From Escherichia coli O127:H6 str. E2348/69 (lineage in GTDB: Bacteria; Pseudomonadota; Gammaproteobacteria; Enterobacterales; Enterobacteriaceae), in the NCBI RefSeq assembly GCF_000026545.1, contig NC_011601.1: a stretch of 64,000 bases of DNA; one strand, written 5' to 3'. Shown here piece by piece: positions 613-6,544 of this stretch. The notes beneath the pieces were generated by a model. It did no database searches and was not told the origin of the DNA. It saw nothing but the letters and a program-made list of their open reading frames with translations. Position numbers and translations under genes: made by a program. Numbering within the stretch: position 1 is the stretch's first letter; the number at the start of each line of letters is the position of its first letter.

Positions 613-2151
613 ATGCAACAGCAAAAACCGCTGGAAGGCGCACAACTGGTCATTATGACGATTGCGCTGTCACTGGCGACATTCATGCAGGTGCTGGACT
701 CCACCATTGCTAACGTGGCGATCCCCACTATCGCCGGGAATCTGGGCTCATCACTCAGTCAGGGAACGTGGGTGATCACTTCTTTCGGGGTGGCGAATGC
801 CATCTCGATCCCGCTTACCGGCTGGCTGGCAAAGCGCGTCGGGGAAGTGAAATTGTTCCTCTGGTCAACCATCGCCTTTGCTATTGCGTCGTGGGCGTGT
901 GGTGTCTCCAGCAGCCTGAATATGCTGATCTTCTTCCGCGTGATTCAGGGGATTGTCGCCGGGCCGCTGATCCCGCTTTCGCAAAGTCTATTGCTGAATA
1001 ACTACCCGCCAGCCAAACGCTCGATCGCGCTGGCGTTGTGGTCGATGACGGTGATTGTTGCGCCAATTTGCGGCCCGATCCTCGGCGGTTATATCAGTGA
1101 TAATTACCACTGGGGCTGGATATTCTTCATCAACGTGCCGATTGGCGTGGCGGTGGTGTTGATGACACTGCAAACTCTGCGCGGACGTGAAACCCGCACC
1201 GAACGGCGGCGGATTGATGCCGTGGGGCTGGCACTGCTGGTTATTGGTATCGGCAGCCTGCAGATTATGCTCGACCGCGGTAAAGAGCTGGACTGGTTCT
1301 CATCACAGGAAATTATCATCCTCACCGTGGTGGCGGTGGTGGCTATCTGCTTCCTGATTGTCTGGGAGCTGACCGACGATAACCCGATAGTCGATCTGTC
1401 GTTGTTTAAGTCGCGCAACTTCACCATCGGCTGCTTGTGTATCAGCCTCGCGTATATGCTCTACTTCGGCGCGATTGTTCTGCTGCCGCAGTTGTTGCAG
1501 GAGGTCTACGGTTACACGGCGACGTGGGCAGGGCTGGCCTCTGCGCCGGTAGGGATTATTCCGGTGATCCTGTCGCCGATTATCGGCCGCTTTGCGCATA
1601 AACTGGATATGCGCCGACTGGTAACCTTCAGCTTTATTATGTATGCCGTCTGCTTCTACTGGCGTGCCTATACCTTTGAACCGGGTATGGATTTTGGCGC
1701 GTCGGCCTGGCCACAGTTTATCCAGGGTTTTGCGGTGGCCTGCTTCTTTATGCCGCTGACCACCATTACGCTGTCCGGTTTGCCACCGGAACGACTGGCG
1801 GCGGCATCAAGCCTCTCCAACTTTACGCGAACGCTGGCGGGGTCTATCGGCACGTCGATAACCACGACCATGTGGACCAACCGCGAGTCACTGCACCATG
1901 CACAGTTGACTGAGTCGGTAAACCCGTTCAACCCGAATGCTCAGGCGATGTACAGTCAACTGGAAGGGCTTGGTATGACGCAACAGCAGGCATCAGGCTG
2001 GATTGCCCAGCAGATAACCAATCAGGGGCTGATTATTTCCGCCAATGAGATCTTCTGGATGTCAGCCGGGATATTCCTCGTCCTGCTGGGGCTGGTGTGG
2101 TTTGCTAAACCGCCATTTGGCGCAGGTGGCGGCGGGGGTGGTGCGCACTAA
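613..2151 (+). CDS. emrB: Multidrug efflux MFS transporter EmrB
   Basis: ORF 604..2151; ATG at 613 gives MQQQKPLEG N-terminus; polytopic membrane protein ending in native Gly-run GAGGGGGGAH. Confidence 0.93.
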   Translation: MQQQKPLEGAQLVIMTIALSLATFMQVLDSTIANVAIPTIAGNLGSSLSQGTWVITSFGVANAISIPLTGWLAKRVGEVKLFLWSTIAFAIASWACGVSSSLNMLIFFRVIQGIVAGPLIPLSQSLLLNNYPPAKRSIALALWSMTVIVAPICGPILGGYISDNYHWGWIFFINVPIGVAVVLMTLQTLRGRETRTERRRIDAVGLALLVIGIGSLQIMLDRGKELDWFSSQEIIILTVVAVVAICFLIVWELTDDNPIVDLSLFKSRNFTIGCLCISLAYMLYFGAIVLLPQLLQEVYGYTATWAGLASAPVGIIPVILSPIIGRFAHKLDMRRLVTFSFIMYAVCFYWRAYTFEPGMDFGASAWPQFIQGFAVACFFMPLTTITLSGLPPERLAAASSLSNFTRTLAGSIGTSITTTMWTNRESLHHAQLTESVNPFNPNAQAMYSQLEGLGMTQQQASGWIAQQITNQGLIISANEIFWMSAGIFLVLLGLVWFAKPPFGAGGGGGGAH

Positions 2152-2157
2152 GGTTGC

Positions 2158-2186
2158 CAAAGGGAGCTGCGGCTCCCTTTTTATTT
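2158..2186 (+). terminator. Rho-independent terminator downstream of emrB
   Basis: GC-rich hairpin aaagggagc-tgcg-gctcccttt followed by T-run. Confidence 0.65.
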
Positions 2187-2408
2187 GCTCATTCTGCAAA
2201 CGGTTGTTTTATACACTCATTCGGTGTATCTTTTCGCCGCCCCAAACTCTTCCATTCACCATTAGCCGGTTCTGAGCATTCGCTCAGGTTGTTAATTCTC
2301 TTTTTCCTTCGCCCTTGCTTTCGCGGGTGATACTCACATTTTTATTTTAACCCCATAACTCGCACCCTCGCGGGCGTACATTTATTACACACAAAATAAT
2401 GGATTATT

Positions 2409-3116
2409 ATGAATACCCAACGAAAATACGGGAGAACCTGGCATTACCCCTTCTCTCCAGGCACCACCAGCGATGACCGCATTAACACCGATTACTGGCA
2501 GGATTTAAAGGCCATCACGCAATTGGTGCACACAGAAAAACTCGATGGCGAAAATAACTGCCTTAACCGCTACGGCGTGTTTGCCCGCTCCCATGCCACG
2601 CCTACGCAGTCGGCATGGACCTATAAAATTCGCCAACGCTGGCAACTGCTGAAAAACGATCTCGGCGACCTGGAGTTGTTTGGTGAAAATCTCTACGCCG
2701 TTCATTCCATTGAATACCGCGCGCTGGAACAGGACTTTTACCTGTTTGCCGTTCGCTGCCAGGATATGTGGCTGAGCTGGGAAGAGGTGCAGTTTTACGC
2801 CGCTCTGTTTGATTTCCCCTGCGTTCCCGAAATCTCCGGCCCGCAGCCGGGGAATGATGAAAAAAGCTGGCAACGTGATTTTCTGGCGCTGGCCAATGCG
2901 CGCGGCACATTCGATCCCTGGGATACGCAAACCTGGCAACCCTGTACGCTGGAAGGCATTGTCAGCCGAAATCATGATGCGTTTTCTGTCGCTGACTTTT
3001 CGCATAACGTCTTCAAGTATGTGCGCAAAAATCATGTCAAAACCACTGTGCACTGGAAACGCCACTGGCAACGGGCGCGGATGGCCCATGAGTTCGTTTA
3101 TGGAGAACAGTCATGA
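2409..3116 (+). CDS. ATP-dependent RNA ligase family protein (nucleotidyltransferase domain)
   Basis: 235 aa ORF; covalent nucleotidyltransferase motif I K-x-D-G in TEKLDGEN; ligase-like FGENLY and KYVRK motifs; no K-12 counterpart at this locus. Confidence 0.65.
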
Positions 3117-4225
3117 TTTGGCAACTTACCGACGATAAACGCTGGTCGGCGCTACGTCAGCGTTTTAGCTGGGTTGAGGAGATGCATCACACGCCACAAG
3201 ACCCTGAGCATCATGGTGAAGGCGACGTCGGCGTACATACCGAAATGGTGCTTAACGCCCTCATTACTCTGCCAGAATTCCAGCAACTCCCCGCTCAACA
3301 GCAGGAAGTTTTATGGGCGGCGGTGTTATTGCATGATGTTGAAAAGCGCAGCACTACCGTGCAGGAAAACGGACGTATTCAGTCTCCTGGTCATGCTCGT
3401 CGGGGCGAACTGACGGCCCGACAAATTTTATGGCGCGATATCCCAACGCCGTTCGTGCTGCGCGAGCAAATTGTTGCACTGGTGCGTCTGCATGGGTTAC
3501 CGCTATGGTTACTGGAACGCCCGGAACCGGAGCGTTTGTTGCTCACGGCTGCAATGCGCATCGACACGCGTCTGCTCGCTTTGCTTGCTCGTGCCGATCT
3601 GCTTGGTCGCCAAAGCCCGGATCAGCAATCAATGCTGGAACGCATCGATCTGTTCGAGCTGTTTTGCCATGAGCAACAATGCTGGGGAAAAATGCGCCCG
3701 TTCGTTTCTGATTCCGCACGCTGGCATTACCTGACCCATGAGCAAAGTTCTCCTGATTTTGTTCCCTGGGGGGCTGAACCTTTTGAGGTTATTTTGCTGT
3801 GTGGCTTACCGGGTATGGGCAAAGATCGCTATATCAGTGAACAGTGCCAGGGAATTGACGTTATCAGCCTTGATGATATGCGGCGGCGAATCAATGCCAG
3901 CCCGGATGACAAAACCGCTACCGGGCGTATTGTGCAACAGGCAAAAGAAGAGGCGCGCGTTTTTTTACGCCAGAAAAAGCCGTTCATCTGGAATGCAACG
4001 AACATTACCCGCCAGCTGCGTAGCCAGCTCATCAGTCTGTTTACGGCTTACGGCGCACGAGTAAAAATCGTTTATCTGGAAGTGCCATGGGCGCAATGGA
4101 AGCAGCAAAATGCCAGACGCGAGTATGCAGTTCCTGAAGCGGTCGTGATGCGGATGGCCTCAAGGCTGGAAGTTCCTCAACCTGATGAAGCACATAGCGT
4201 GGAGTATCGGGTGATTGAAAGGTAA
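3113..4225 (+). CDS. HD-domain phosphohydrolase fused to P-loop kinase-like domain (putative RNA end-healing enzyme)
   Basis: 370 aa ORF; start overlaps upstream stop (ATGA); N-terminal H..HD motifs ([17 protein letters not shown]); C-terminal Walker A-like [10 protein letters not shown]. Confidence 0.65.
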
Positions 4226-4247
4226 ATAAATATCCTCCGGCATAGCC

Positions 4248-5797
4248 CTGTCTCTTATACACAAATCCCCACCCGGGGATTTGTGATGTCTGTCAGTCTG
4301 CTTTAGGGGGACTCTTTCCATCCGGTAGTTTCCTTCCTCCCCGGCAGCGATTTTTTGAACTTTTTCCTCACCTGTTGATCTTCTCTTATATTTCATTTTC
4401 TTCGGGTCTGTTATGGTACTTTCTGATTGTTATTCATGGGCTAACGAGCAGTTTGGACATGCCCGTCTCGGTGATCCGCGTCGTACACGACGCCTTGTGT
4501 CACTGGCCTCTTCTCTCGCTCAGCATGCAGGTCTTTCTATTGTGAAATCATCCCAGTCCACTGCTCAGGTTGAAGGTGCGTACCGCCTGATACGTAACCC
4601 GTCTGTGTCCCCGCAAGCCATTGCCGAAGCCGGATTTACCGCCACTGTAAGGGCATGTGAGGCTCATCCGCTGCTCCTCGCGCTGGAAGACACCACCACC
4701 ATTAACTTCAGTCACAGTACGGCATCTGATGACCTGGGGAATACCACCACTAACCCGAAGACGCGCGGGCTGCTGGCTCACTCTGTCCTGATGTACGCCC
4801 CCGACAGCGCCCTGCCAGTCGGTCTTATCGAACAGCAGCGCTGGAGTCGTGCCACGGACACCTACGGTGTTAAGCACCAGCGAAAAGAACGTCCCTATGA
4901 AGAAAAAGAAAGTTACCGCTGGCAGCAGGCTTCGGAGCGCATGGCCGAACGGCTGGGGGAGATACAGAAACGGGTAATCACTGTCTGTGACCGGGAAGCG
5001 GATATCTGGCATTACCTGCATTATAAAGTCAGCCACGGGCAGCGCTTCGTGGTGCGTGCAGCACAGAATCGCCGGCTGGAAGAAGCACCCGGCAAGCTCT
5101 TCGAACTGCCGGAAGTCCTGGCAACCGCGGGAAGCCACACGCTGAATGTGATGCAAAAAGGCGGGCGGGCAGCCCGCCAGGCCCGGATGTTCATCAGTTA
5201 CAGCGAAGTCAGCATAAAAAATCCCGACAACAGCGGCCAGGCGCTCCCGCTCACGTATGTCTGTTGCCGGGAGCAGGCAGAGGACGGCGCCTGCTGGCAT
5301 CTGCTGACGTCAGAAAAAGTGGCGAGTGCCGCCGATGCGCGACGTATCGTCAGCCATTACGAGCGACGCTGGCTGATAGAGGAATACCACAAGGCGTGGA
5401 AAAGTGGTGGTACATGTGTGGAATCGCTGCGAATGCAGACCCGGGATAACCTCGAGCGCATGGTGGTTATCAAGGCGTTTATCGCGGTGCGGGTGCTGGG
5501 CCTGCGGCAGGGCGGTATCAGTGAAGAAACACAAAATGACAGCTGTGAGAAAATACTGACGCCGACAGAGTGGAAACTGCTGTGGGTTAAGCTGGAAGGA
5601 AAACCGCTTCCGTCACAGATGCCGACACTGAAATGGGCCTGTCTGAAACTGGCGAAACTGGGGCGATGGCATGACAGCAAACGCACCGGTCGCCCCGGTT
5701 GGGTAGTCATGTGGGATGGCTGGTTCAGACTTCAGGATATGGTTGAGGGTTACCTGGTGATGAAGTCTCTTGATCAGGAGATCTGATCAAGAGACAG
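4248..5797 (+). mobile_element. IS4-family IS50(Tn5)-like insertion sequence, copy 1 (1550 bp)
   Basis: Ends CTGTCTCTTATACACAAATCC and AGATCTGATCAAGAGACAG (the latter matching the Tn5 inside end as recalled); 9-10 bp duplication cggcatagcc; identical to copy 2. Confidence 0.85.
4413..5786 (+). CDS. IS4-family DDE transposase (Tn5 Tnp-like)
   Basis: 457 aa; Tn5 transposase-like motifs GDPRRT, VCDREADI, RWLIEEYHKAWKSGG, DNLERMV, DSKRTG. Confidence 0.88.
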   Translation: MVLSDCYSWANEQFGHARLGDPRRTRRLVSLASSLAQHAGLSIVKSSQSTAQVEGAYRLIRNPSVSPQAIAEAGFTATVRACEAHPLLLALEDTTTINFSHSTASDDLGNTTTNPKTRGLLAHSVLMYAPDSALPVGLIEQQRWSRATDTYGVKHQRKERPYEEKESYRWQQASERMAERLGEIQKRVITVCDREADIWHYLHYKVSHGQRFVVRAAQNRRLEEAPGKLFELPEVLATAGSHTLNVMQKGGRAARQARMFISYSEVSIKNPDNSGQALPLTYVCCREQAEDGACWHLLTSEKVASAADARRIVSHYERRWLIEEYHKAWKSGGTCVESLRMQTRDNLERMVVIKAFIAVRVLGLRQGGISEETQNDSCEKILTPTEWKLLWVKLEGKPLPSQMPTLKWACLKLAKLGRWHDSKRTGRPGWVVMWDGWFRLQDMVEGYLVMKSLDQEI

Positions 5798-5893
5798 CGG
5801 CATAGCCGGAGGTTTTTCAAATGCGCCTATAAGGCTCTCTTACCAGCCGCGCCCTAACAGGCGCACACGATCTGACATTTGCATCCAACTTCG

Positions 5894-6352
5894 TTACTTA
5901 CGGCCCGTAAACGGGCTGCCCGGATAGGGAATCGATAACTGCTCTCCCATTTTATCCTCTTCAAGCTGGTGCTTTATGTAATCCTGTATCTTCGCCGTGT
6001 TCTTACCCACCGTATCGACGTAATACCCTCTGCACCAGAACTCCCTGTTCCTGTACTTGAATTTCAAATCACCAAACTGCTCGTAAAGCATCAGACTGCT
6101 TTTCCCTTTCAGATATCCCATAAAGCCGGATACGCTCATTTTGGGCGGGATCTCCACAAGCATATGGATATGATCTGCACAGCATTCAGCTTCCAGAATC
6201 CGTACACTTTTCCACTCACACAGCTTTCTCAAAATACAGCCTATTGCTCTACGCTTCTCTCTGTAGAACACCTGTCTTCGGTATTTTGGCGCAAATACTA
6301 TGTGATATTTACAGTTCCATCGGGTGTGCGCTAAGCTCTTTTCGTTCCCCAT
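5894..6352 (-). CDS. tnpA: IS200-family transposase TnpA (Y1 HuH)
   Basis: MGNEKSLAHTRWNCKYHIVFAPKYRR N-terminus, HIHMLV HuH motif, C-terminal catalytic Tyr region; ORF 5894..6403 with start at internal Met. Confidence 0.85.
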   Translation of the reverse strand: MGNEKSLAHTRWNCKYHIVFAPKYRRQVFYREKRRAIGCILRKLCEWKSVRILEAECCADHIHMLVEIPPKMSVSGFMGYLKGKSSLMLYEQFGDLKFKYRNREFWCRGYYVDTVGKNTAKIQDYIKHQLEEDKMGEQLSIPYPGSPFTGRK

Positions 6353-6544
6353 TGGGACCCCCTTTTGATTTCTTGTTTGACACTTGCAGTTGCCAGACCG
6401 CAAGGTGTTTTAACAAATCAAAAGGGGTTTTAATAACTGGCTCAAAGCTGAAAGCTTTCCGGAACCCCCAGCCTAGCTGGGGGTTTTCTGTGCACAAAAA
6501 ACCGGGCGGTGGTGTCACCTGCCCGGCTTCTTTTGTTCCACTGA

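Follow-up and report, generated by a model that had tools for sequence, protein, structure and literature searches.

Between emrB and luxS, the chromosome of Escherichia coli O127:H6 str. E2348/69 carries two overlapping open reading frames (ORFs), which we analysed within a window of 64,000 nucleotides (contig NC_011601.1; 100% identity match to the E2348/69 chromosome). ORF1, named generically as 'RNA ligase family protein' in RefSeq, encodes a predicted polynucleotide-ligase-type protein, here called LIG, and ORF2, named 'ATP-binding protein', encodes a predicted two-domain end-healing protein, here called HD-Pnk. The pair begins downstream of the end of emrB at position 2151 and has the following parts.

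2409–3116, + strand: ORF1 (LIG), 235 amino acids (aa), predicted single-domain ATP-dependent polynucleotide-ligase-type adenylyltransferase, homologous to Deinococcus radiodurans DR_B0100/LigB and to Runella LIG
2532–2555, + strand: nucleotidyltransferase motif I of LIG, TEKLDGEN, residues 42–49
3102–3116, + strand: translational-coupling junction, a GGAG Shine–Dalgarno sequence within the 3′ end of LIG followed by an ATGA stop/start overlap
3113–4225, + strand: ORF2 (HD-Pnk), 370 aa
3113–3742, + strand: HD phosphohydrolase domain of HD-Pnk, residues ~1–210, predicted to heal 2′,3′-cyclic-phosphate and 3′-phosphate ends
3776–4225, + strand: predicted P-loop 5′-OH polynucleotide kinase domain of HD-Pnk, residues ~222–370

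In the ATGA motif (3113–3116), the ATG of ORF2 (3113–3115) overlaps the TGA of ORF1 (3114–3116), and the GGAG sequence (3102–3105) lies nine bases 5′ of that ATG. The initial annotation, made from the letters of the DNA and a list of its ORFs, had described two translationally coupled genes at a place where K-12 has only a short spacer, and both observations hold: in K-12 MG1655, 63 bp separate the stop codons of emrB and luxS, and resemblance to the window ends right after the emrB stop codon. ORF1 and ORF2 are genuine genes under strong purifying selection rather than chance reading frames, because dN/dS against orthologues from other Enterobacteriaceae is 0.04–0.17 for both, both match Pfam families, thousands of homologues were recovered in protein searches, and the pair, at ≥80% query coverage, is present in 998 of 5,426 complete E. 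coli genomes (18%).

ORF1 matches the Pfam family RNA_ligase (1e-27) and no model in NCBIfam. Across an alignment of 41 sequences extending to Deinococcus and jumbo phages, K44, D46, G47, E93, F113, E182, G183, K203 and R206 are invariant, and the covalent nucleotidyltransferase motifs I, III, IIIa, IV and V (K44, E93, F113, E182–G183 and K203/R206) are all kept. The assignment of ORF1 to the RNA-ligase-family nucleotidyltransferases, which the initial annotation had based on a lysine in motif I, is therefore supported, and that lysine, K44 (codon 2538–2540), is the predicted acceptor of AMP. The AlphaFold model of LIG (predicted local distance difference test (pLDDT) of 92) consists of one domain only, the adenylyltransferase. 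Its nearest structural neighbours are the RNA ligases Rnl5 and Rnl2; the scores were about 9–12 for DNA ligases, 11.3 for Trl1 and 7–9 for capping enzymes. Both the C-terminal domain of Rnl2 and the N-terminal OB domain of Rnl5 are absent from the model. Stand-alone homologues of LIG, 28–45% identical, also occur in the jumbo phages Phosso, CcrSC, LR756502 and ME3 (loci L088–L091); no adjoining HD-Pnk gene was found in these phage loci, and the homologues of CcrSC and ME3 carry a fused N-terminal domain of ~150 aa, without an assigned function, ahead of the ligase domain.

ORF2 matches the Pfam family AAA_33 (2e-31), with an HD match that is weak when taken alone (0.14), and gave only partial, sub-threshold matches in NCBIfam. 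The predicted metal ligands of its HD domain are H42, H74–D75 (3332–3337), H94, H127 and D162. An alignment of 40 sequences shows no variation at H74, D75, H94 or D162, and at least 90% of the sequences keep H42 and H127. The P-loop of the C-terminal domain, GLPGMGKD, spans G231–D238 (3803–3826), and D254, R257, R303 and R336 are also conserved. In the AlphaFold2 model (pLDDT of 95), the N-terminal domain is helical and resembles CCA-family and HD proteins, with the CCA-enzyme family nearest, and the kinase domain is nearest to CthPnkp, PSTK and T4 Pnk. The kinase domain is accordingly predicted to belong to the Pnkp/T4 Pnk-type clade of polynucleotide 5′-OH kinases. The proposed fusion of an HD phosphohydrolase to a P-loop kinase is thus confirmed at the level of profiles, conserved ligands and folds. 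The same comparisons group ORF1 with neither DNA ligases nor capping enzymes and do not place ORF2 in an unrelated HD or ATPase family. Distant relatives of HD-Pnk (25–34% identical) lack an upstream LIG gene on the Pseudomonas amygdali megaplasmid pMPPla107, where an aminoacyl-tRNA hydrolase gene and a Sir2-family gene flank the relative, and on a Vibrio parahaemolyticus replicon; beside a cyanobacterial relative, LIG is present and diverged.

The cassette is very probably the E. coli orthologue, carried by phylogroup B2 and its relatives, of the LIG + HD-Pnk operon for end healing and sealing that has been published from other bacteria. ORF1 shares 58% identity with LIG of Runella sp. (E 9e-104), and ORF2 is 49% identical to the HD-Pnk of the same organism from end to end with one gap (E 1e-135). 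The genes of the Runella sp. locus follow the order Tpt1 (PF01885), MTase-HIT, RNA_ligase (LIG), HD-Pnk, as published for the Runella slithyformis cluster, in which the ligase gene, at its 3′ end, overlaps the start of HD-Pnk (PMC6097658). The Runella operon and the E. coli pair share the two proteins, the order HD then Pnk, their sizes (~235 and ~370 aa) and an overlap between the ligase and HD-Pnk genes; unlike its Runella counterpart, the E. coli pair stands alone between emrB and luxS, without adjoining Tpt1 or MTase-HIT genes. Similarity to the D. radiodurans proteins is lower: 35% identity between ORF1 and DR_B0100 (E 7e-27), with K44 aligned to K40, and 29% between ORF2 and DR_B0098 over residues 5–369, that is, full length (E 2e-33). 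In the Deinococcus operon DR_B0100 (LigB)–DR_B0099 (PARG)–DR_B0098, the homologous ligase comes first and the homologous HD-Pnk last, as in E. coli. It differs in the PARG gene placed between them, in an interdomain insert of ~40 residues in HD-Pnk that ORF2 lacks, and in lying on a megaplasmid and being radiation-induced (PMC5397189).

Members of this operon have been characterized biochemically. Runella HD-Pnk is described as a bifunctional kinase and 2′,3′-phosphoesterase, and Runella LIG forms a ligase–AMP adduct (PMC6097658). DR_B0098 is a 5′-OH kinase with an HD domain, and DR_B0100 is adenylylated at K40, with adenylylation lost in a K40A mutant (Blasius et al. 2007, PMC1997131). Work from the Shuman laboratory (2017–2018) describes LIG + HD-Pnk in R. 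slithyformis and D. radiodurans, with the Deinococcus operon also treated in Schmier & Shuman 2018. The initial annotation had put the cassette forward as a candidate novel system. Its domain assignment and predicted chemistry stand, and the novelty does not, as the operon had been published (Blasius et al. 2007; Shuman laboratory 2017–2018) and the homology is clear. A specialist in RNA repair would identify the operon immediately.

The cassette is also distinct from the other repair systems that come closest to it, as had been claimed for Pnkp/Hen1 and RtcAB. Among the closest known systems are the Clostridium thermocellum Pnkp/Hen1 and Capnocytophaga Pnkp1/Rnl/Hen1 RNA repair systems. Pnkp/Hen1 combines kinase, metallophosphoesterase and ligase in one polypeptide with an adjacent Hen1, a composition that the E. 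coli cassette does not share: ORF2 scores 32 bits against the NCBIfam Pnkp model TIGR04075 (cut-off of 750), through its kinase part only, and no Hen1-like gene is annotated near the cassette. Relative to phage T4 Pnkp with Rnl1/Rnl2 and to the Rnl5 ligases (NgrRnl, DraRnl), LIG has neither the C-terminal domain of Rnl2 nor the OB domain of Rnl5, and the phosphatases of T4 Pnkp and HD-Pnk belong to separate superfamilies. The RtcB/RtcA and RtcB2–PrfH systems address the same presumed problem, RNA breaks with 2′,3′-cyclic-phosphate and 5′-OH ends. RtcB joins a 3′-phosphate directly to a 5′-OH with GTP and requires no healing of the ends. It is homologous to neither ORF, ORF1 being a predicted lysine–AMP ligase, and a tblastn search of the 64-kb window detected neither rtcB nor prfH. 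The fungal and plant enzyme Trl1 (LIG–KIN–CPD) is one polypeptide, the 2H cyclic phosphodiesterase of which leaves a 2′-phosphate that ligation needs; HD-Pnk, by contrast, reportedly takes the 2′-phosphate off. No defence family in PADLOC-DB 2.0 matched ORF1 or ORF2 at E ≤ 0.1.

To describe the wider neighbourhood of the pair, relatives of ORF2 were sought with one genome per species, giving at least 578 species, and neighbouring genes were counted in the best 80 of these loci. Immediately upstream and on the same strand, 78 of the 80 have a LIG homologue; in one of the two exceptions the contig is broken off, and in the other, Alysiella, LIG is 4.9 kb distant. Where the junction was measured, the LIG and HD-Pnk ORFs overlap by 1–26 nt, with GGAG(G) lying within the ligase gene's 3′ end, in 58 of 68 loci. 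When all flanking ORFs of the 80 loci were clustered, no further gene was common to more than ten. Munir and Shuman reportedly described HD-Pnk homologues in 2017 from ~129 genera of 11 phyla, nearly always beside the ligase; the phosphoesterase of HD-Pnk reportedly uses Ni, Cu or Co. Seven species of Enterobacteriaceae from six genera have the pair at the same site, after emrR–emrA–emrB, and in six of them luxS follows, either directly or past an extra insertion; luxS was not detected within the examined stretch of the Phytobacter locus. EmrB and LuxS of these species are 91–94% identical to those of E. coli, and the two cassette proteins are 70–84% identical. This distribution fits long residence at the emrB–luxS site with loss in K-12-like lineages, and not a recent insertion in B2 strains.

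Among the recurring neighbours, rtcB alone points to a function, and that function is RNA repair. In nine of the 80 species, from two phyla, rtcB or rtcB–prfH lies directly upstream of LIG–HD-Pnk and is co-oriented with it; these are three Serratia, four Bacteroides/Phocaeicola, one Mucilaginibacter and one Taibaiella.

rtcB-linked loci: L015, L016, L017, L023, L032, L034, L036, L037 and L053, at ~3000–5300 in most

In six of the nine, prfH is also present, and L034 keeps a 26-aa prfH remnant. The RtcB proteins of Serratia and of the Bacteroidota are very unlike each other (373 versus 465–501 aa; 584 versus about 130 bits against TIGR03073), and the linkage to rtcB is therefore either old or has arisen more than once. 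RtcB2–PrfH rescues ribosomes after colicin E3 has cut their 16S rRNA, and religates them (PMC9304027, PMC9223846). The adjacency of rtcB–prfH and LIG–HD-Pnk is unmentioned in the rtcB–prfH papers examined.

These comparisons suggest how the E. coli pair might work. A ribotoxin-type cut would leave 2′,3′-cyclic-phosphate (or 3′-phosphate) and 5′-OH ends. HD-Pnk would heal the break, its C-terminal P-loop domain phosphorylating the 5′-OH, as in the Runella and Deinococcus enzymes, and its N-terminal HD domain stripping 2′,3′-cyclic, 3′- or 2′-phosphates to give a 3′-OH, by analogy with the Runella phosphoesterase. LIG would adenylylate itself on K44, as two of its homologues have been shown to form an AMP adduct, and would then presumably pass AMP to the 5′-phosphate made by HD-Pnk and seal the break. 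For sealing, we infer that LIG requires a partner (HD-Pnk or another) as well as a specific structured substrate, because it is a bare nucleotidyltransferase domain that is almost universally coupled in translation to HD-Pnk. The isolated N-terminal domain of T4 Rnl2 is reportedly defective in the step of AMP transfer. Dependence on a partner is likewise indicated by DNA ligation in Deinococcus, which one group reported for DR_B0100 only when DR_B0098 and PprA were present. The two proteins would form a complex, and RNA would be the target in vivo. The most likely target would be RNAs of the translation apparatus that ribotoxins have cleaved, because of the RNA-ligase-like fold of LIG, the linkage to Tpt1 in Runella and the linkage to PARG in Deinococcus; a 2025 paper discusses the Deinococcus PARG as removing ADP-ribose from 5′-phosphate ends of RNA and DNA.

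A more specific proposal, which we advance tentatively and regard as rather unlikely, is that LIG–HD-Pnk is a partner-dependent, substrate-specific repair module for rRNA in ribosomes or for tRNA, working beside or backing up RtcB2–PrfH against colicin-type ribotoxins, with the bare ligase sealing only when bound by HD-Pnk on the native structured substrate. Such a requirement would explain why ligation with the ligase alone has failed since 2007. The repeated placement of the pair directly downstream of rtcB–prfH provides a concrete hypothesis, ribotoxin-damaged ribosomes or tRNAs, for the substrate of this ligase clade that has been sought since that year. The native copy in E. coli B2 strains would allow the proposal to be tested directly. 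The value of the cassette is practical: E2348/69, ST95 and other well-studied strains have a natural pair at one constant place in the chromosome, for which K-12 serves as a natural null.

Several considerations weigh against the reading of the cassette as an operon that heals and seals broken ends. The enzyme activities of E. coli ORF1 and ORF2 are predictions, and the Runella identities given above are those to orthologues from a Runella sp., congeneric with R. slithyformis, the locus of which keeps the order of genes that was published. Neither DR_B0100 alone nor Runella LIG alone sealed a DNA or RNA substrate among those tried (PMC1997131, PMC5397189, PMC6097658). The sole phenotypes known from the literature examined are those of D. 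radiodurans mutants, which are sensitive to ionizing radiation and mitomycin C, both DNA-damaging; radiation sensitivity is reported for the DR_B0098 mutant. Adjacency to rtcB is limited to nine of the 80 loci and is absent from the E. coli window, and at least some strains can do without the pair, given the frameshift annotated in the ligase gene of strain Nissle 1917.

The Deinococcus phenotypes raise the alternative that the pair acts mainly in the repair of DNA strand breaks, in which HD-Pnk would heal the 'dirty' 3′-phosphate and 5′-OH ends that oxidative or radiation damage leaves, and LIG with partners, or LigA, would then seal them. The induction of the operon by radiation, the use of a DNA oligonucleotide in assays of the DR_B0098 kinase and the reported DNA ligation with DR_B0100, DR_B0098 and PprA agree with this idea, as does the Runella paper (Munir & Shuman 2017, J Bacteriol 199:e00739-16) in its title, where HD-Pnk is called a DNA/RNA end-healing enzyme. 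We nevertheless consider it somewhat unlikely: the fold of LIG is nearest to RNA ligases rather than DNA ligases, LIG is without the OB domain by which DNA ligases encircle a nick, the recurring neighbours are the RNA-repair genes rtcB–prfH and Tpt1, and no LexA-type or other DNA-damage signal was recognized in the leader of the cassette in a check made by eye only. The failure of the ligases to seal on their own could instead mean that sealing is not their function, and that the lysyl-AMP of LIG adenylylates or caps a 5′-phosphate end or another acceptor while HD-Pnk adds or removes terminal phosphates. Three reports describe adenylylation without ligation, LIG consists of the nucleotidyltransferase domain alone, and the isolated T4 Rnl2 domain mentioned above is reportedly defective in AMP transfer. 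Some taxa, moreover, have the pair linked to enzymes of end ADP-ribosylation or 2′-phosphate chemistry (PARG in Deinococcus, Tpt1 and HIT in Runella). However, LIG keeps all of the ligase motifs, including the motif IV and V residues of the later steps, and sealing is the simplest explanation for its near-universal pairing with an enzyme that makes the ends used by classical ligases, which renders a non-sealing role quite improbable.

The remaining alternatives concern the origin and novelty of the pair rather than its chemistry. As an accessory locus in E. coli that is adjoined by two insertion sequences in E2348/69, that has LIG homologues in jumbo phages and the proteins of which are 50–65% identical to those of Bacteroidota, suggesting old horizontal transfer, the pair might be carried as cargo by a mobile or defence island and could, for instance, be an anti-phage or counter-defence module that B2 strains gained recently. 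This is very improbable, as no PADLOC model matched, the emrB–luxS site is shared by the seven species noted above, the insertion sequences are confined to E2348/69 and the phage homologues are without an adjoining HD-Pnk. An undescribed RNA repair system unlike anything known, to which the differences from Pnkp/Hen1 and RtcAB, the lack of a Hen1 or RtcB gene in the locus and the generic RefSeq names might point, is scarcely conceivable: publications already cover the architecture, the overlap within the operon and the enzymology of two members, to which the E. coli proteins show clear homology.

Upstream of ORF1, the region between emrB and the cassette contains a terminator and a conserved leader.

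2159–2180, + strand: emrB terminator hairpin, AAAGGGAGC-TGCG-GCTCCCTTT followed by a T run, found in a terminator scan
2190–2408, + strand: non-coding leader of the cassette, ~215 nt from the emrB terminator to the start of ORF1, conserved in six genera of Enterobacteriaceae
2271–2288, + strand: leader hairpin, CTGAGC-N4–6-GCTCAG, with invariant stems and a loop of varying length

The emrB terminator hairpin of the window is kept in other Enterobacteriaceae and is unrelated to that of K-12 (window 2151–2200 versus 2655–2718 of the K-12 locus L092). As similarity to K-12 stops at the emrB stop codon, the presence/absence polymorphism takes in the terminator region. The cassette probably has its own promoter, because the terminator hairpin separates it from emrB, and the leader is presumably a promoter or regulatory region and may be a promoter/operator or an attenuator of the cassette. 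A second GC-rich inverted repeat lies in the leader at ~2369–2386. The scan for sigma-70 promoters and terminators yielded no sigma-70 consensus in the leader and turned up only the emrB terminator and the leader hairpin, and nothing in Rfam matched across 2100–4450 at E ≤ 1. In an RNAalifold analysis of the conserved leader, the hairpin is invariant and no covariation was seen; hence no RNA structure can be claimed for the leader.

Downstream of ORF2, two insertion sequences separate the cassette from luxS in E2348/69 (4249–6403).

4413–5786: transposase of ISEc13 (IS4-like), with a Tn5-like end, CTGTCTCTTATACACAA, from 4249
5894–6403, − strand: tnpA of IS200C

Both are specific to E2348/69, because in Nissle 1917 the gap between ORF2 and luxS is just 48 bp. 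The end sequence of ISEc13 has 29 matching places in the E2348/69 chromosome. In Nissle 1917, the frameshift is annotated in the ligase gene at 1610–2307 of locus L093, and the HD-Pnk gene is intact; the protein database also contains shortened alleles of LIG and HD-Pnk (P0133 and P0024–P0027 among them). In some strains, therefore, the pair is in decay. Farther downstream in the same chromosome region (15679–16271 of locus L001), four tRNA-Arg genes and one tRNA-Ser gene lie between yqaB and csrA, which is ordinary E. coli content.

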